Shown: one piece after another, positions 5,368-31,525 of the stretch | Numbering within the stretch: the stretch's first letter is position 1 | How the letters are laid out: each line of letters begins with the position of its first letter | Origin: Actinomycetota bacterium | Lineage (GTDB): Bacteria > Actinomycetota > Acidimicrobiia > Acidimicrobiales > Aldehydirespiratoraceae | Assembly: GCA_039188975.1 (NCBI GenBank) | Contig: JBCCYT010000003.1 | Coordinates: forward strand, 2,703 to 66,702 | DNA length: 64,000 nt | Direction: 5' to 3' | Translations under genes and position numbers: made by a program | The notes under the pieces: generated by a model | Database searches by the model: none | What the model was told of the DNA's origin: nothing | The model's input: only the letters and a program-made list of their open reading frames with translations

Positions 5368-5443
5368 GCCCGAGTAGCTCAGTTGGTAGAGCGACGCTCT
5401 CGTAAAGCGTAGGTCAGGAGTTCAATTCTCCTCTCGGGCTCCA
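5368..5443 (+). tRNA. tRNA-Thr (anticodon CGU), CCA encoded
   Basis: It folds by hand into a cloverleaf: acceptor GCCCGAG/CTCGGGC, D-arm GCTC..GAGC, anticodon stem ACGCT/AGCGT with loop CTCGTAA, and T-arm AGGAG-TTCAATT-CTCCT. It is 73 nt plus CCA. Confidence 0.93.
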
Positions 5444-22849: not shown

Positions 22850-23698
22850 ATGTCCGTGACCGAGAACGAAACCGTCCCCCACGTGTCTGACCTCACCATC
22901 GACCAACGAGATGCAGACGCTGCCGCCGAGGTGTTCAACCTCGCCGACCTCAACGTCTACTACGCCGACAATCGCGCGGTCGCCGACGTCAACCTGACGG
23001 TGAAGGAACGAGAGATCACCGCATTCATCGGACCATCGGGCTGCGGCAAGTCGACCGTGCTGCGCTGCTTCAATCGCATGAACGACCTCATCCCGATCGC
23101 CCGGGTCGAGGGATCGGTGAAATACCACGGCGTCGATCTCTACGCTCCCGAGGTTGACCCGGTCGCGGTTCGTCGCCGGATCGGTATGGTGTTCCAGAAG
23201 CCCAATCCGTTCCCCAAGTCGATCTTCGACAATGTCGCCTACGGCCCCCGCGTCGGCGGCATGAAGGGCAACATGGAAGAGATCGTCGAGAGTTCGCTGC
23301 GACGAGCCGGCCTGTGGGACGAGGTGAAGGATCGTCTCAACGAGTCAGCGCTTGGCATGTCCGGCGGTCAGCAGCAGCGGCTGTGCATCGCCCGTGCGAT
23401 CGCCGTCAACCCCGACGTTCTTCTCATGGACGAACCGTGCTCGGCGCTCGACCCGATCGCGACCGGTCGTATCGAGGAACTCATGAAAGAGATCCAGAAC
23501 GACTACACGATCGTCATCGTCACCCACAACATGCAGCAAGCGGCCCGCGTCTCGGACCGCACCGCCTTCTTCACGGCCGAGCTCGATGACTCCGGGAACC
23601 GGCGCGGACGTCTTGTCGAGTTCGACGAAACCTCCACGATCTTCTCCAACCCGGCCGACGAGCGCACCGAGGCCTATGTGACCGGTCGGTTCGGATGA
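22850..23698 (+). CDS. pstB: phosphate ABC transporter ATP-binding protein
   Basis: Walker A is GPSGCGKST, the signature is LSGGQQQR, and Walker B is LLMDEP. The ATG at 22850 follows a GGAGA ribosome-binding site. Confidence 0.95.
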
Positions 23699-25137
23699 TG
23701 GAGAACCGCACGCAGCTCGACGAGCGGATCGGGTTGATCGAGCGGAACCTGCTCGAAATGATCGAGATGGTCGCCGACCGGGTCGGGCAGGTGACGACCG
23801 CGATGCTGGAAGGCGACATTGCCTTGGCCGACGATCTCGTGGCGCGAGACGACGAGATCGACCTGCTGTCGACCCAAGTCGAGGAAGGCTGTGTCGACAC
23901 GCTTGTACGTGAACAGCCGGTTGCATCGGACCTGCGTTTCATCGTGGGCACACTGCACGCCAACTCCGACGTCGAACGCAGCGGCGACCTGGTCGCCAAC
24001 ATCGCCAAGGCGGTCGGCCGCCTGCAAGGTGCCCATCCCGACGATCAAATTCGTGACCTCGTCGCTCACATGTCAGCCCAGGCCGTCGAGCTGTTTCGGC
24101 GGGCGGGGACGGCGTTTCGAACCCGTGACGCAGAGCTGGCCAAGTCGATCGACGAACTCGACGACCTCCTCGACGATCTCCACTACCGCTACATCCAGCA
24201 TGTGATTCAAGACGCTCGTCGCGGCGAGATCGATCCACAACAGTCGTTGCAGCTGGCGCTCGTCGGCCGCTTTTACGAACGGATCGGCGACCATGCGGAG
24301 AACATCGGGGAGCGAGTTCGTTACATCGTCGACGGATGGTCGCCTGAAGCGCAGGCCGCGGAACGGGCGAAGGCTCGCCTCGCTGGCCTCGCCGAGACGC
24401 CCGCGTCGCGAGGTCTCGCGGTGATCGACCAGATCGCCGAGGAACGCCGCATCGATGCCATTCGTCGCGACTTTGTTGCGAACGTCTCTCACGAACTCAA
24501 GACGCCGGTCGGGGCGATGAGCCTCCTTGCGGACACGATCTCCACCGAGCCCAACGCGGAAGATCGAACCCGCCTGAGCGACATGTTGATGCGCGAAGCG
24601 AAGCGGGTCGAAGACATCATCGATGACCTGCTGGAATTGACCCGACTCGAAGAAACCGAATCCGACACCGAAACCGTTGCGGTCGACGACGTTGTGAGCC
24701 GGTCGATCGAAAAGGTCAACGTCTTCGCGTCGACGCAACGGGTCGAACTGGCATCTGTCGGCGTGCCCAGTGGGCTCCTCGTGACCGGCGACCGTCGGGC
24801 GCTCGTGCGGGCCCTCACCAATCTGATCGACAATGCGGTGCGCTACAGCGAGTCCGACTCTCAAGTGACCGTCGTGGTCGAGGACCTGTCCGAGAACGTG
24901 GCGATCAGTGTCCGCGATGAAGGTGTCGGTATTCCTCGCACCGAACTCGAGCGGGTGTTCGAACGCTTCTACCGAGTCGACCGAGCCCGGAGTCGAGAGA
25001 CCGGCGGAACCGGCCTGGGCTTGGCGATCGTCCGGCACGTCGCCAGTAACCACGGCGGTCGCGTGTCGGTCGAATCCAAACCCGGTGACGGTTCGGTCTT
25101 CACGATCACCTTGCCGCTGGAGGCAACCGTTCTGTGA
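23695..25137 (+). CDS. PhoU-domain fused to a histidine kinase (cytoplasmic, no TM or PAS)
   Basis: Residues 1-~215 are a two-repeat PhoU ([12 protein letters not shown]...[13 protein letters not shown]; [18 protein letters not shown]). Then come the H-box [13 protein letters not shown], the N-box [10 protein letters not shown]1 DEGVGIP and G2 [10 protein letters not shown]. An ATGA overlap joins it to pstB and a GTGA overlap joins it to the regulator. Confidence 0.88.
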
Positions 25138-25835
25138 CCGATCTGATCAGCGTCCTGGTTGTCGATGACGAACCAGCGTTTCGGGAAGGGCTTCGTCAAG
25201 CCCTCAAACAGGAAGGGTTCATCGTGCACCTCGCCGCTGATGGCGAGGAAGCACTCGAGGTCTACCGGGCATATCACCCGGATCTCGTTCTGCTCGACGT
25301 GATGCTGCCCCGTATGTCCGGCATCGATGTCTGTCGCCAGATCCGAGCGGCGGACGACACGCCCGTCATCATGGTGTCGGCCCGCAACGAAGAGATCGAC
25401 GCTGTCGTCGCGCTCGAGGTCGGCGCCGATGACTATGTCTCGAAGCCCTATCGAGTGCGTGAGCTCGTCGCCCGCATGCGAACCGTCTTGCGTCGAGCCG
25501 GCACCGCACCGAACCAGCGCGACGAGACACCCGCATCGGTGCTCACGGTTGGAGAGATCTCCCTCGACCGAGACCGCCACGAGGTCGCGATCAACGGCGA
25601 GTCGGTGCAGCTGCCGCTCAAAGAGTTCCAGCTCCTCGCACTCCTGATGGAAAACGCCGGCATCGTCGTCACCCGCCAGACACTCATCGACCGGGTGTGG
25701 GGCTACGACTATGTCGGCGACACCAAGACCCTCGATGTGCACATCAAACGGCTGCGGGCCAAGGTCGAGCCGATGCCCGACAACCCCGAGCGCATCGTCA
25801 CCATCCGCGGGCTGGGCTACAAGCTGAATTCCTGA
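25134..25835 (+). CDS. OmpR/PhoB-family response regulator (RegX3/PhoP-like)
   Basis: The receiver domain has LVVDDE...LVLLDVMLP...VSKP. The winged-helix output has LDVHIKRLRAKVE and IVTIRGLGYKL. Confidence 0.92.
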   Translation: MTDLISVLVVDDEPAFREGLRQALKQEGFIVHLAADGEEALEVYRAYHPDLVLLDVMLPRMSGIDVCRQIRAADDTPVIMVSARNEEIDAVVALEVGADDYVSKPYRVRELVARMRTVLRRAGTAPNQRDETPASVLTVGEISLDRDRHEVAINGESVQLPLKEFQLLALLMENAGIVVTRQTLIDRVWGYDYVGDTKTLDVHIKRLRAKVEPMPDNPERIVTIRGLGYKLNS

Positions 25836-25848
25836 CAGGCCGCCGCCC

Positions 25849-26501
25849 ATGGCCGACCTGTACGAGACGATGAGCACGCTGCGGGCGGTGCGGCGTGTTC
25901 GCCCTGACCCGATTCCCGACGATGTGCTCGAACGGGTCTTGCAGGCGGCGTGTTGGTCGCCGACCGGCGGCAACACCCAGCCGTGGAAGGTCGTGGTCGT
26001 CACCGACCTCGAACGCAAGGCTGGGCTGCAGACCATCTACAAGGCCGAGTGGGATCCGTACGTGGTGCAGTTCCTCGACTCGAGCGAGTGGCCGGCACCC
26101 GCGACGAGGAGCAGTGGAAGAAGGTCGCGGACGCGGGCAATCGGCTGGCCGACAACCTCCACGAAGCCCCGGCCATTTTGCTATTCGCCGCCAATCCAGC
26201 GGCGATGGCGATCACCGATGCCAAGCTCGACCGCATCAGCATGGTCGGCGGCGGCTCGGTGTATCCGGCAGTGCAGAACGCCATGCTGGCGTGCGCCGCG
26301 GAAGGCCTCGGCTGCACGCTCACGACGCTTCACTGTCACCGCGAAGACGAGGTGAAGGCGCTGCTCGACATCCCCGACTCGTGGGCCACGGTCGCCATGG
26401 TGCCGATCGGCTACCCCGAGCTGAAGGGGCACGGCCCGATCACGAGGAAGCCCCCGTCGAAGATGGCCGCCCGCAATTCCTTCGAAGGCACCTCGCCCTG
26501 A
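25849..26501 (+). pseudogene. nitroreductase-family gene with a frameshift near 26080-26100
   Basis: The N-terminal ~78 aa (TLRAVRRVRPDPIPDDVLERVLQAACWSPTGGNTQPW) read in frame 1. The C-terminal ~135 aa (EEQWKKVADAGNRLADNLHEAPAILLF...GYP) read in the frame of ORF 25950-26501. Confidence 0.75.
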
Positions 26502-26562
26502 CCCTCGGAGGCCGCCTCCTGGCGCGGTCTGGTGTCAGTCGCACTCGCTAGGGTGGCCGACG

Positions 26563-29500
26563 ATGTCGGAATCTCCCTTGCTCGCCGGTCTCAACCCGGC
26601 CCAGTACGACGCGGTTCTCCACGACGGCGGGCCGCTGCTCGTCGTCGCCGGTGCCGGTTCGGGCAAGACCCGAGTCCTCACCCATCGCATCGCCCACCTG
26701 ATCGAGCAGGGTCTGTCGCCGTTCGAGATCCTCGCCATCACCTTCACCAACAAGGCGGCAGGCGAGATGAAGCACCGCGTCGGTGGCCTCGTCGGGCCGG
26801 TCGCCGAGAAGATGTGGGTGTCCACGTTCCACTCGGCGTGTGTGCGCATCCTGCGGCGCGACGTCGAACGCCTCGGCTTCCCCGGTCGGTTCTCGATCTA
26901 CGACCAAGCCGACGCGGTTCGCCTCGCCGGCTATGTCATCCGTGACCTGAATCTCGATCCTAAGCGGTTCCCGCCCCGGTCGGTGCACGGCACCATCTCG
27001 ATGGCCAAGAACGAGAACATCGGCCCCGAGCAGTACGCAGCCGAGGCGGAGCAGATCTTTCAGCGCAAGATCGGCGACGTGTACGCCGAGTATCAGAAGC
27101 GCCTGCTCCAGGCTGGCGCCATGGATTTCGACGATCTCCTGATGCGTACTGCGCAGCTGTTCCGTGAACATCCTGACGTGCTCGACGGCTGGCGCCGGCG
27201 CTTCGGTCATGTGCTCGTCGACGAGTACCAGGACACCAACCCGGTCCAGAACGACCTCGTCCTCCAGCTAGCCGAGGAGCACCGCCAAGTCACCGTCGTC
27301 GGCGACAGCGATCAGTGCCTTCCGCCGGGGACGATGATCTCGACACCCCAAGGCGATCGCCCGATCGAGACACTTCGCGAAGGCGATCTCGTCTACGGCA
27401 CCGGCGGGTCGAACACGCCGGTGGCCCGTCCGATTCGTGAGGTCCGTAAGACACGCCACATGGGACGGCGCTATCGCATCCACGCCGGGGGTCGAACGAT
27501 CGAAGGGACACCTCACCACATCGTCCCGGCCCAGCTCACGCTCGACCCGTCGGCACATGTCGTCTACCTCATGTACCGACACGATCGCGGGTTCCGCGTC
27601 GGGCAAACCAAAGCGACGCGTCCCAACGGGAAGGGTGGCTTGGAGATCGGTCTGCGAGTCCGATGCAACCAGGAGCACGGCGACAAGGCCTGGATCCTGC
27701 GGGTCGTCGGTTCCTCGGCCGAGGCCTCCTGGTGGGAGGCCTACTACGCCGCCCAGTACGGGCTCCCGACAGCTTGTTTTCATTCCCTTGGCCGGAACCT
27801 GGCGATGGGAGCCGACGATCTTGCTCGGCTGTTCGATGCGCTCGACACCGAACAGGCGGCAAAGCAACTCTTCGAGGATCTTGATCTGCATGAGGAGTTC
27901 CCGCATCACCGACCGCAGAGCGGGGCGAATAGGCAGACGCTCAACCTCACGATGTTCTCCGACCACCGTTCTGGAGAGGTGGGGTACCACCGGCTTCAAT
28001 GGTCGTCCAACCGGCAAGACGTTGCGAAACGGCTGCTTGACGGCGGTTGGAACGTCCGGAAGTCCAAGCACGCATCGGTGCGTGTGGAGACATCACGGAA
28101 GAGCTATTGCGAAGCACTTTGGGAAGCCACGGCGATGTCTTGGGAGGGGCAGCTGGAAGTCAACCGTCGGATGGCCGTCGATGGCGAGATTTACGGCTAC
28201 CAACCGCTTAGCCACCTCCGCCCGGGGATGGTCGTGTTGGTGGAGACAGACCACGGCTTCGATCGAGTGGCAGTCGACGACGTCGAGATCTTTGAGGCGT
28301 CGGGCCCGGTCTACGACCTCGAAGTCGATGATGTGCACACGTATGTCGCTAATGGCGTGCTCGTGCACAACTCGGTCTATGCGTTCCGAGGCGCCGACAT
28401 TCGCAACATTCTCGAGTTCGAAGAAGCGTTCCCCGACGCCACCGTCGTCGTGCTCGAACAGAACTACCGATCGACCCAGTCGATCCTCGACGCGGCCAAC
28501 GCCGTCATCGCTCGCAACGTCGGCCGCAAACCCAAGGACTTGTGGACCGACAAGGGCGCCGGCGAGAAGATCGTTCGCTACCACGCCGACGACGAATCCG
28601 ACGAAGCCCAATTCGTCGCCAACGAGCTCGCCAAGCTCCACGATCACGACCACAAGCGATGGGGCGAGATGGCGGTGTTCTACCGAACCAACTCCATGTC
28701 GCGTGTCATCGAAGAGTTCCTGGTGCGGGTCGGGATCCCGTACAAGGTCGTCGGCGGCACCCGCTTCTATGACCGTCGCGAAGTGAAGGACGCGCTGGCG
28801 TACCTCCGGGCGATCGTCAACCCGACCGACGAGGTGTCGGTCAAGCGGGTCATCAACACCCCCAAGCGAGGGGTCGGCGATTCGTCGATCGGCAAGCTCG
28901 ACGCCTGGGCCTCCGCCAACGGCGAATCGTTCGACCAGGCGGTTCTGCGCTTCGACGAAGCCGGTGTCGGGGGTCGAGCCGCAACCGGTATCGAGAAGTT
29001 CCTGGTGCTGACCACCGAGATCCGCAAGCTCAACGCCGGTCCGGCCACTATCATCGAAGAAGCGCTCGAACGGTCCGGCTATCTCGAAGAGCTCCAGGCC
29101 GAGCGGTCGGTCGAGGCCGAAGGGCGGCTGGAGAACCTGTCCGAACTGGTCGGCATGGCTCGCGAGTACGAGACGGTCGACGACTTCCTCGAACAGGTTT
29201 CCCTCGTCAGCGACACCGACGACATCGACGAAGAGGAATCCCAGGTCACCTTGATGACCCTGCACTCGGCGAAGGGACTCGAGTTCCCCGTCGTCTTCTT
29301 GGTCGGCATGGAAGACGGTGTGTTCCCGCACATCCGGGCCCTCGGCGAACCAGCCGAACTCGAAGAAGAACGCCGCCTCGCCTATGTCGGCATCACCCGA
29401 GCGATGGAGAAGCTGCATCTCACGAGCGCATGGAGCCGGATGATGCACGGCCAGACGCAGTACAACCCGCCGAGCCGCTTCCTCGACGAGATCCCGTCCG

Positions 29501-29868
29501 AGCTGATCGAGGAGATCGGCGGCACCCGCATGTTGCGCTCACGCCGCGACCGCAGCGGAGGCGGCCGAACCTATGGCGGGGGAGGGGGCAGCGAGGTCCC
29601 GACCGGCCGGACCTTCGGCGGCGGTGGCCGCGACAGCCACCACGACGACGTCGTCGAAGCCGCCCTCGCCGCCGCCAACAAGCCGACCCCATCCGGAGCC
29701 GAAGCAATGGGCCTCAAGGTCGGCGACGACGTGCGCCACAACCAGTGGGGCGAAGGCGTGATCACCGACATCGAAGGCGCCGGCGACAAAGCCGAAGCGT
29801 CCGTCTACTTCGGCTCGGTCGGCGAGAAGCGGCTGCTCCTCAGCTGGGCCCCACTCGAAAAGATCTGA
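26563..29868 (+). CDS. pcrA: ATP-dependent DNA helicase PcrA/UvrD, interrupted by an in-frame intein
   Basis: Walker A is AGAGSGKT and motif II is DEYQDT. Motif III is split as VVGDSDQ | intein | SVYAFRGA. The C-terminal Gly-rich linker and Tudor-like tail (HNQWGEGVI) are present. The 1101-aa length compares with ~750 aa typical. Confidence 0.92.
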   Translation: MSESPLLAGLNPAQYDAVLHDGGPLLVVAGAGSGKTRVLTHRIAHLIEQGLSPFEILAITFTNKAAGEMKHRVGGLVGPVAEKMWVSTFHSACVRILRRDVERLGFPGRFSIYDQADAVRLAGYVIRDLNLDPKRFPPRSVHGTISMAKNENIGPEQYAAEAEQIFQRKIGDVYAEYQKRLLQAGAMDFDDLLMRTAQLFREHPDVLDGWRRRFGHVLVDEYQDTNPVQNDLVLQLAEEHRQVTVVGDSDQCLPPGTMISTPQGDRPIETLREGDLVYGTGGSNTPVARPIREVRKTRHMGRRYRIHAGGRTIEGTPHHIVPAQLTLDPSAHVVYLMYRHDRGFRVGQTKATRPNGKGGLEIGLRVRCNQEHGDKAWILRVVGSSAEASWWEAYYAAQYGLPTACFHSLGRNLAMGADDLARLFDALDTEQAAKQLFEDLDLHEEFPHHRPQSGANRQTLNLTMFSDHRSGEVGYHRLQWSSNRQDVAKRLLDGGWNVRKSKHASVRVETSRKSYCEALWEATAMSWEGQLEVNRRMAVDGEIYGYQPLSHLRPGMVVLVETDHGFDRVAVDDVEIFEASGPVYDLEVDDVHTYVANGVLVHNSVYAFRGADIRNILEFEEAFPDATVVVLEQNYRSTQSILDAANAVIARNVGRKPKDLWTDKGAGEKIVRYHADDESDEAQFVANELAKLHDHDHKRWGEMAVFYRTNSMSRVIEEFLVRVGIPYKVVGGTRFYDRREVKDALAYLRAIVNPTDEVSVKRVINTPKRGVGDSSIGKLDAWASANGESFDQAVLRFDEAGVGGRAATGIEKFLVLTTEIRKLNAGPATIIEEALERSGYLEELQAERSVEAEGRLENLSELVGMAREYETVDDFLEQVSLVSDTDDIDEEESQVTLMTLHSAKGLEFPVVFLVGMEDGVFPHIRALGEPAELEEERRLAYVGITRAMEKLHLTSAWSRMMHGQTQYNPPSRFLDEIPSELIEEIGGTRMLRSRRDRSGGGRTYGGGGGSEVPTGRTFGGGGRDSHHDDVVEAALAAANKPTPSGAEAMGLKVGDDVRHNQWGEGVITDIEGAGDKAEASVYFGSVGEKRLLLSWAPLEKI
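27316..28371 (+). mobile_element. intein (352 aa) within PcrA motif III
   Basis: Block A is C1 (CLPPGTMIS), block B is TPHH, block F is VYDLEVDDVHTYVANG and block G is VLVHN followed by +1 Ser. Removing it restores GDSDQSVYAFRGA. Confidence 0.88.
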
Positions 29869-30280: not shown

Positions 30281-31525
30281 CTACCAGGCGCACTCGATGT
30301 GCTTGAGTCCGTTGATGAAGCTCGAACGCAGGCGGTCGGGTTCACCCACGCTGTGAATCTCGGGAAGCTCACGCAGCAAGTCCCGATACATCACGCTGAT
30401 CTGGCGGCGGGCGAGGTGGGCGCCAAGACAAAAGTGCGGTCCGGGTCCGCCGAAACCGACATGATCGCGGAGATTGTCGCGGGTGATGTCGAACCGGTAC
30501 GGGTCGTGGAAGACGGCATCGTCGCGGTTGCCGGAGGCATAGAACAGCACGACCTTGTCGCCCTCGGAGAACGTGTGGTCGCCGAGCTGGGCGCCGTCTT
30601 CGGTGACGGTGCGGCGGAAGTGAATGACCGGGCTTGCCATGCGAACCATTTCCTCGACCGCGTTTGGCATGTGGGTCTCGACATCGCTCATCAACAGGTC
30701 GCGCTGGTCGGGATGGTCGGTCAAGAAGGTCAGGCCCCACGCGATCGAGTTGCGGGTCGTCTCGCTTCCGGCAGCACACAGCAGCACGAAGAAGCTCTGG
30801 ATCTCCTGTCGGGTCAGCTTGTCGCCCTCGATCTCTGCGTTGACGAGCGCAGTGGTCAGATCGGCCGCGTCGCCGTCGACGGAACGGTCGGCGATGTCAT
30901 CGATCAACGCCGCCAGACCGGCGCCGGCTTCGAGAAACGCTTCGAGCGGGTTCTTGCCTTCCGGAATGAACTCCGGATCGCCCTGACTCAAGATGATGTT
31001 CGTCATGTCGAAGACGAACTCGTACTGCGACTCGGGAATCCCCATCATGTCGCAGATGATCTTCACCGGAAGCCACGCCGCGCAGGCCGTGACGAAATCA
31101 CAGCCCGGGCCTTCTTCTCGGAGCCGGTCGACGATGCGGCCCGCCGCCAGCTCGACGTCTTCCATGTTGCGTTGCAGCATGCGCGGCGTGAAACCGGCGG
31201 CCACCAGCTTGCGAAGACGCTTGTGGCGAGGGTCGTCCATGTTGATCATCGAGCCGAAGAACTCGTTGAACTCGGGCGGGAGATCTGGAATGTTCGTCCC
31301 GGCCCCGGATTGGAACAGTTCTGGTTGGCGACTGGCTGCGATGATGTCGGCGTGTCGGGTCAGGGCGTAGTAGCCGGGGCCGGCCGGGAGATACTCGGTC
31401 TCGTGCTCGGCGAAGAAGCGAATCGGGTCCTCGCGTCGAAGCGTCTCGAAGGCCGCCTCTCGGACATCGAGCGGTTCGGTCCAGAACCCTTCGACGTCGG
31501 ACAGATCGATTTCACTCAGCTGCAT
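30281..31525 (-). CDS. cytochrome P450
   Basis: It has the heme-binding loop FGGPGPHFCLGAHLAR, the I-helix AGSETT and the ExxR motif. Confidence 0.92.
   Translation of the reverse strand: MQLSEIDLSDVEGFWTEPLDVREAAFETLRREDPIRFFAEHETEYLPAGPGYYALTRHADIIAASRQPELFQSGAGTNIPDLPPEFNEFFGSMINMDDPRHKRLRKLVAAGFTPRMLQRNMEDVELAAGRIVDRLREEGPGCDFVTACAAWLPVKIICDMMGIPESQYEFVFDMTNIILSQGDPEFIPEGKNPLEAFLEAGAGLAALIDDIADRSVDGDAADLTTALVNAEIEGDKLTRQEIQSFFVLLCAAGSETTRNSIAWGLTFLTDHPDQRDLLMSDVETHMPNAVEEMVRMASPVIHFRRTVTEDGAQLGDHTFSEGDKVVLFYASGNRDDAVFHDPYRFDITRDNLRDHVGFGGPGPHFCLGAHLARRQISVMYRDLLRELPEIHSVGEPDRLRSSFINGLKHIECAW

Follow-up and report, generated by a model that had tools for sequence, protein, structure and literature searches.

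The pcrA gene on contig JBCCYT010000003.1 of the Actinomycetota bacterium assembly GCA_039188975.1 raises the question of why a helicase that comprises 749 amino acids in its intein-less orthologs is encoded here by an uninterrupted open reading frame (ORF) of 1101 codons plus stop, and of what the additional segment in the middle of the protein does. The stretch of DNA analysed, hereafter the window, covers 64,000 nucleotides (contig positions 2,703 to 66,702), and the ORF for the precursor occupies window positions 26563..29868 on the plus strand, as do all of its parts described below. Sequence comparisons indicate that the insert is a full-length class 1 intein situated between the Gln and Ser residues of PcrA motif III. 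It is very probable that this intein is mobile and that it is spliced out to leave a 749-residue helicase, and its central domain most likely serves as a homing endonuclease.

On the basis of the ORF list, TIGR01073 and Pfam, the precursor can be divided into an N-extein (PcrA residues 1-251, 26563..27315), the intein (residues 252-603, 27316..28371) and a C-extein (residues 604-1101 and the stop codon, 28372..29868). The host protein is identified as PcrA by the NCBIfam equivalog TIGR01073 (921.1 bits with the insert included, cut-off 911.2), and the second stretch matched by this model begins at residue 603 of the 1101-residue protein, so that the break falls at the intein end. The Pfam domains UvrD-helicase, UvrD_C and PcrA_UvrD_tudor are located at residues 10-252, 629-955 and 1053-1100, respectively. 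The N-extein is collinear with the 749-residue intein-less orthologs and ends with the first half of motif III (VTVVGDSDQ), and the C-extein starts with the second half (SVYAFRGAD). The junctions read VGDSDQ/CLPPGTMISTP and ANGVLVHN/SVYAFRGADIRN, with the slash marking the boundary here and below, and motif III of the superfamily 1 (SF1) helicase, GDSDQ/SVYAFRGA, is split between Gln251 and Ser604 by an in-frame segment of 1056 bp.

Removal of residues 252-603 in silico yields a 749-residue protein. When this spliced sequence was searched against 5.8 billion proteins, 117 of the 120 best matches listed were clusters of 749-residue PcrA proteins, sharing 93-98% identity and covering 100% of the spliced query. 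One further 1101-residue protein occurs among these 120 best matches (L014). It is encoded on contig JBCCVN010000008.1 of assembly GCA_039195265.1, where the DNA is 99.8% identical to that of the window, the gene neighbours are alike and the ORF is intact, which assigns the window to this Acidimicrobiia-like lineage of metagenome-assembled genomes; an exact-sequence look-up of the 1101-residue PcrA of the window returned no record, L014 being its nearest copy. In an empty allele that is syntenic with the window (L015), the site reads ...GATTCCGACCAG/TCGGTCTAC..., also given as ...GTCACTGTGGTCGGCGATTCCGACCAG/TCGGTCTACGCCTTCCGCGGTGCCGAC... across the empty motif III. Against Geobacillus PcrA (1PJR, residues 192-340) the spliced sequence aligns without gaps and the junction corresponds to Gln254/Ser255 in motif III. 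The alignment is likewise gapless across this motif with structures 9dci and 2is1, and with Mycobacterium tuberculosis UvrD1 and Escherichia coli UvrD and Rep aligned as well, motif III is restored against PcrA, UvrD1, UvrD and Rep structures once the insert has been removed. A preliminary description of this locus, made from the window sequence, had given the PcrA ORF as 1101 residues and had placed the insert of some 350 residues at 27316-28371, had predicted that its removal would recreate motif III, and had proposed an alignment with intein-less orthologs and a search for empty sites in relatives. Each of these points is borne out by the precise junctions, the collinear 749-residue clusters, the gapless 1PJR alignment and the empty sites in L015 and in 117 of the 120 best matches listed.

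The 352-residue intein was delineated with Hint_2, Intein_splicing, TIGR01443, an AlphaFold2 model and 12 same-site homologues. Its Hint N-terminal lobe (intein residues 1-74, 27316..27537) carries the block A nucleophile Cys1 (27316-27318) and block B, T65-P-H-H68 (27508-27519), and residues 1-45 match Pfam Hint_2 (E 3.4e-8, 34.4 bits, cut-off 28.4). The Hint C-terminal lobe (residues 291-352, 28186..28371) contains block F, VYDLEVDDVHTYVA, with Asp334 (28315-28317), and block G, VLVH351-N352, which ends with Asn352 (28369-28371) and is followed by the +1 nucleophile, Ser604 (28372-28374), as the first residue of the C-extein. This lobe matches the NCBIfam intein_Cterm model TIGR01443 (33.8 bits, cut-off 15.6) and aligns to mini-intein C-halves, with the C-terminal 60 residues of the intein aligning to the solved mini-inteins Spl DnaX (7cfv, E 1.2e-4) and Mtu RecA. 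Residues C1, T65, H68, D334, H351 and N352 are invariant in the 12 same-site alleles, and H341 is at least 90% conserved. The AlphaFold2 model, built on 22 sequences, adopts the Hint fold with a mean predicted local distance difference test (pLDDT) value of 93.7 and a predicted template modelling (pTM) score of 0.89. Inteins rank top in a Foldseek search of this model against the PDB, including the Mtu RecA mini-intein 3ifj and gp41-1, with template modelling scores relative to the target (TMt) of 0.81 and 0.82, and the mini-inteins superpose on the split Hint lobes of the model with a TM of 0.8 relative to the target. The Hint domain itself accounts for only some 135 of the 352 residues, and the remainder forms a separate central domain. 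The sequence strings quoted in the preliminary description (CLPPGTMIS, GTPHHIV, VYDLEVDDVHTYVANG and VLVHN followed by Ser) are all present, and the class 1 splicing residues it enumerated, namely C1, the block B His, the penultimate His, the terminal Asn and the +1 Ser, hold across the 12 alleles. It had, however, omitted the central domain of about 215 residues, which is separate from the Hint lobes and neither of the LAGLIDADG nor of the HNH type. No further inteins of the same type were found elsewhere in the 64-kb window.

The residues and the predicted fold point to a class 1 splicing pathway. The precursor would be translated as a single chain of 1101 residues, in which an N-S acyl shift at Cys1, aided by Thr65 and His68 of block B, would generate a thioester. 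Attack of Ser+1 on this thioester would give a branched ester, after which cyclisation of Asn352, with help of His351 and of the block F residues Asp334 and His341, would release the intein. An O-N shift would finally form the Gln-Ser peptide bond and restore GDSDQSVYAFRGA and the active 749-residue helicase. Mutagenesis and structures of PcrA have established that Gln254 of the Geobacillus enzyme contacts the ATP gamma-phosphate and that the aromatic and Arg residues which follow it bind single-stranded DNA, motif III thus coupling the ATP gamma-phosphate to single-stranded DNA binding. As the insert splits this coupling motif, the unspliced 1101-residue PcrA should be inactive. The pcrA product of the host genome would accordingly be an inactive precursor in need of splicing, one that gene callers and domain-based annotation can be expected to mislabel.

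The central domain extends over about intein residues 75-290 (approximately 215 residues, 27538..28185), as delimited by the model, the profile search and the ratios of nonsynonymous to synonymous substitution (dN/dS). In the model it consists of two lobes, each with the order strand-strand-(hairpin)-helix-strand-helix, joined by a helical hairpin. Comparison of the two lobes with hhalign gave a weak signal (E 0.018, probability 2.6%), and they may derive from an ancient internal duplication. Central-domain dN/dS ranges from 0.06 to 0.09, as against 0.09-0.24 for the splicing lobes, indicating purifying selection that is at least as strong, the ratios themselves being rough. The window copy retains 37 of the 38 columns that are conserved in at least 75% of 150 diverse relatives, and Tyr84, Arg94, Arg116, Glu120, Asp123, Glu141 and His197 are invariant in the family. 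A profile of the domain matched 1855 proteins at E <= 1e-3, of which 1091 reach E <= 1e-10, among 1.84 billion cluster representatives (50% identity clusters). Among the best 150 of these and the proteins of the first search, 123 domain matches include both Hint halves, and the junctions GDxxQ/C and HN/[S/C]IYxFRG occur in nearly all 123. At position +1, nearly all of these roughly 120 complete family members have Ser or, less commonly, Cys. Five larger proteins bearing the domain were tested in Pfam, and all are UvrD-family helicases, some of them with several inteins. The UvrD-like helicases P0110, P0144, P0162 and P0181, with 1872-2536 residues, are giants with several inteins each. The domain is also present in inteins at or next to helicase motif II ('VDEAQDLNK/C', 'VLVDE/C') and must thus have moved to one or more other sites. 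A search with Foldseek against the predicted viral structures of BFVD returned three strong matches, all of them large viral proteins in which this domain is evidently present; one is named a helicase, one a methyltransferase and one is without a name. The methyltransferase entry, A0A8S5TZY8 of Myoviridae sp. ctCuC1 (782 residues, 'adenine specific DNA methyltransferase'), matches with an E-value of 5.7e-8 and 24% identity, and may represent the domain or intein in a non-helicase host protein, or may be wrongly named. A 332-residue ENA protein (P0025) comprises a TrpRS/TyrRS-type C-terminal fragment (PF00579) which runs straight into the central domain without a Hint N-lobe; a chimeric contig, a frameshift or the occurrence of the domain in another context could account for this.

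The central domain is probably the homing endonuclease of the intein. Its target for recognition and cleavage would then be the motif III coding sequence without an insert, and recombinational repair would copy the intein into the break; the seven family-invariant residues listed above are candidate catalytic or phosphate-binding residues. No recognised LAGLIDADG, HNH or Vsr-like endonuclease domain was found between the Hint lobes. A LAGLIDADG or HNH domain in this position was rejected, as there is no hidden Markov model (HMM) match to either in the window copy, 11 same-site alleles and 7 divergent relatives, and the LAGLIDADG matches of Foldseek in the PDB are non-significant. Some actinophage inteins have endonucleases encoded in antisense or in another frame (bioRxiv 10.1101/2025.01.02.630785). 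In the window copy, the long ORFs in other frames, of 267 residues on the minus strand and 449 residues in frame +2, are artefacts of high guanine-plus-cytosine (GC) content, and in low-GC alleles no alternative-frame ORF inside the intein is longer than 81 residues. Because no other reading frame is conserved in the low-GC alleles, the in-frame central domain is the sole candidate for the mobility function.

Among known nuclease folds, the first lobe recalls GIY-YIG enzymes. It has the order beta1-beta2-alpha-beta3-alpha, with the invariant Tyr (Y84) in beta1, [Y/F]-R-x-G in beta2, the invariant Arg (R116) in the first helix and the invariant Glu (E141) in the second helix, and it may represent a very divergent GIY-YIG-like fold. 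Several GIY-YIG endonucleases also appear in the tail of weak BFVD Foldseek matches (E 4e-3 to 0.2), with none in the PDB top 50. No GIY-YIG match of the PF01541 type was obtained at E <= 10, and no equivalent of the GIY-YIG Asn is evident in the lobe. Up to 2006, no intein was reported to carry an enzyme of this type (PMC1564403), and a 2025 preprint names GIY-YIG in passing among the intein-associated endonucleases (10.1101/2025.01.02.630785).

Mobility is suggested by the distribution of the intein. In a scan of one genome per species, homologous inteins were found at the identical position, after GDxDQ and before S[IV]YxFRGAD, in Acidimicrobiia, Calidithermus, Anaerolineae and Patescibacteria. 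The identity to the window copy is 80%, 67% and 52-53% in other metagenome-assembled genomes of Acidimicrobiia, 51% in the cultured Calidithermus chliarophilus DSM 9957 and 34-39% in Anaerolineae and Patescibacteria. A protein search added an Armatimonadota copy (P0026, 32% identical), in which the protein is truncated and the N-terminal junction alone is visible. In phage genomes, tblastn located the central domain in 39 records, of which 35 are named as phages of enteric bacteria and four as Campylobacter phages; the enteric phage records read belong to the Stephanstirmvirinae, and some carry an 'intein' mat_peptide annotation. Homologous inteins thus occupy the PcrA/UvrD motif III site in five bacterial phyla and in phages, in line with the proposal in the preliminary description to look for allelic inteins at this position. 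As homologues fill the exact site in distant phyla and phages and most close relatives are empty, the comparisons indicate that the intein is a selfish, mobile element. The window intein is as similar to that of Calidithermus (51%) as to other Acidimicrobiia copies (52-53%), whereas the exteins share 47-49% and 59-72% identity, respectively, and intein and extein histories, as judged from these sequences, disagree. In one closely knit host clade, with PcrA extein identities of 93% or more, the inteins diverge by 20% at the protein level. Between the window and loci L001 and L002 the synonymous divergence (dS) of the intein is 1.2-1.5, about twice that of the exteins (0.6-1.1), these values being near saturation and rough. 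Such an excess would fit inteins that were acquired independently or exchanged within this host clade. In many metagenomic relatives, pcrA is called as a pair of ORFs because the intein central domain is out of frame (L023 and the pairs P0017/P0040 and P0024/P0035). In L023, on ENA contig ctg296376_3x_l, two indels, of +1 and -4, lie at PcrA codons 344 and 500, respectively, the contig has 3x coverage and a neighbouring gene also appears split. The break in L023 is most likely an assembly error, and may alternatively reflect real decay of the central domain; a split intein was for this reason rejected as an explanation of the two-ORF relatives. For the window itself a naturally split intein is ruled out by the single uninterrupted ORF, present also in L014.

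The case is not without observations that weigh against it. On the side of splicing, Pfam Intein_splicing at the intein C-terminus remains below its threshold (26.6 against 35.8), as does NCBIfam intein_Nterm (18.6-19.4 bits against 24.5). As regards mobility, the composition of the intein is not anomalous, its GC content of 0.63 lying within the 0.61-0.69 of the flanks, mismatches to the empty allele L015 are evenly distributed about the site without a visible co-conversion tract, and the dS values near saturation render both the dN/dS values and the dS ratios rough. As for the nuclease, no Pfam family matches the central domain in the window copy, in 11 additional same-site alleles or in 7 divergent relatives, and NCBIfam and PHROGs have no match to the central domain of the window copy. 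A Foldseek search of the PDB with a model of the isolated domain (pLDDT 85) gave LAGLIDADG enzymes at best (E 0.05, probability 0.14). Alignment by hhalign, local and global, of the central domain with a reference set of seven GIY-YIG sequences (I-TevI and six verified phage homologues) returned a probability of 0.4%, and the aromatic at the 'YIG' position, Phe in the window copy and Y, F or W in relatives, is atypical for the catalytic GIY-YIG tyrosine. Owing to this low profile-profile probability and the variable second aromatic, the central domain is not filed as GIY-YIG. The two sub-threshold domain scores would also suit a non-splicing insertion, whether a bacterial intein-like (BIL) domain or a dead intein, and with it a mere gene variant or pseudogene. 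This is very improbable and was rejected, given that all catalytic residues are invariant in the 12 alleles, the invariant motif that holds the insertion supplies a +1 Ser or Cys in nearly all of the approximately 120 complete diverse homologues, empty-site orthologs are collinear to the residue, the ORF is intact in the independent, 99.8% identical assembly L014, and the structural model gives a Hint fold at high confidence. A conserved non-splicing insertion had been named in the preliminary description as the finding that would overturn its proposal, and it is this alternative that is refuted by the invariant residues, the Hint model and the empty sites. The same description had also suggested that the intein makes PcrA activity conditional on splicing, which is speculation, since the sequence argues neither for nor against regulated splicing. 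A stress- or redox-gated switch on PcrA activity would draw on Cys1 as a redox-sensitive nucleophile, on an insertion that divides the catalytic coupling motif and should leave the precursor inactive, and on the conditional splicing documented for other helicase inteins, for example that of Mycobacterium smegmatis DnaB (PMC6195587). Cys1 is, however, the sole invariant cysteine in the 12 alleles, with no second conserved cysteine to pair with it, and the distribution is that of a selfish element. Furthermore, the host does not depend on the intein, because most close relatives lack it at 93-98% extein identity, and a role as a switch is accordingly improbable.

A more serious competitor to the homing endonuclease interpretation, if still rather unlikely, accepts that the intein splices and holds that the central domain is not a nuclease. 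The domain might instead bind DNA or act as a scaffold, or might have been recruited for a host or intein function such as precursor folding, with the intein spreading via another endonuclease or by ordinary recombination. This would agree with the lack of a nuclease family match by sequence or solved structure (a profile search of PDB sequences with the central domain found nothing), with weak PDB fold matches that include DNA-binding folds, for instance those of the MotA C-terminal domain and LAGLIDADG saddles, and with the strong purifying selection on the domain even where exteins suggest long residence. It accords less well with a domain that, in phyla and phages alike, is found almost only at a single insertion site within a single gene family, which is the signature of a site-specific homing enzyme, with the family-invariant residues E120, D123, E141, H197, R94 and R116, which look like an active site, and with an intein that contains no other ORF to supply a nuclease. 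The homing endonuclease interpretation is preferred on these grounds. Tentatively, and with somewhat less than even confidence, it may be extended to the proposal that the central domain founds a hitherto undescribed homing-endonuclease family, with either a new fold or the first in-frame, extremely divergent GIY-YIG-like one in inteins, which is specialised for the sequence coding for motif III, and occasionally motif II, of UvrD/PcrA-type helicases and has spread the intein over at least five phyla and phages.

The genes flanking pcrA show no sign of a mobile-element island. The nitroreductase gene directly upstream (window about 25849-26551) is frameshifted, with the break near 26070-26080, and residues 1-77 and 73-215 of the intact 215-residue L015 ortholog match two different frames. 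As the break also occurs in L014, it represents either a real pseudogene of the lineage or an assembly error common to both. Further upstream, a PhoU-domain histidine kinase and a response regulator are encoded at 23695-25835, preceded by pst transporter genes in L014 and L015. Directly downstream of pcrA is a cytochrome P450 gene on the minus strand (30281-31525), which is followed in L014 by a HipA/HipB-like toxin-antitoxin pair. The sole tRNA gene in the window is a tRNA-Thr (CGT) at 5368-5443.

The preliminary description had regarded motif III of PcrA as a notable site for an intein. The same site is, however, already occupied in five phyla and in annotated phage copies, and the UvrD/Rep/PcrA helicases are a listed intein host class (PMC5874633), with 16 UvrD inteins counted in a 2016 survey that included Actinobacteria and Deinococcus-Thermus (PMC4760082). 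The window intein is an ordinary further member of a large family, and its site is not new. What novelty there is remains modest and resides solely in the central domain, the intein and the site being already known. This domain is large, strongly conserved, widespread in metagenomes and tied to one target site, and has no counterpart in the versions of Pfam, NCBIfam and the PDB that were searched. Should it prove to be a nuclease, it would represent a homing-endonuclease family with a long and highly conserved target, the motif III coding sequence of nearly all bacteria, and a possible new scaffold for sequence-specific DNA cutting.

Among known systems, the intein in Calidithermus (Meiothermus) chliarophilus DSM 9957 (NZ_KE387026.1) is a close counterpart from a cultured strain of a different phylum, and is probably one of the Deinococcus-Thermus UvrD inteins in the count of Novikova et al. 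2016 (PMC4760082). It occupies the same site (VVVGDPDQ/CLPPDTLV...VLVHN/SIYGFRNAD), comprises 353 residues, is 51% identical over its full length and has the same central domain, with exteins that are 47-49% identical. The UvrD/Rep helicase intein of the E. coli phages of the Stephanstirmvirinae, as in JohannJBalmer (MZ501084.1, bas62_0080), is also found at this site (VVVGDEFQ/C...SHN/CIYQFRG), in a protein annotated in GenBank as an 'intein-containing UvrD / Rep family helicase precursor' with an intein mat_peptide. Its 347 residues have the same architecture as the window intein, namely Hint-N, a central domain with VYLMWRKDLGFRVG, YGIPT and PHW motifs, and Hint-C. The identity is about 32% for the intein and 31-32% between the phage helicase and the window PcrA, and the phage intein has a +1 Cys in place of the Ser of the window. 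The actinobacterial class 1 inteins of Mtu RecA (PI-MtuI) and DnaB have the same Hint fold together with Cys1, TxxH, the block F Asp, His-Asn and a +1 nucleophile, and the C-terminal lobe of the window intein aligns to the Mtu RecA mini-intein. The Mtu RecA and DnaB inteins, in contrast, carry LAGLIDADG domains and are inserted at the P-loop or other RecA and DnaB sites, whereas the window intein combines an unclassified central domain with SF1 motif III. The likeness to the GIY-YIG homing endonucleases of the I-TevI type lies in the strand-helix order of the first lobe and in its invariant Tyr, Arg and Glu; the lobe differs from them in a hairpin of 20 residues inserted before the Arg helix, in a second aromatic that is not fixed as Tyr and in the lack of HMM or profile-profile similarity.

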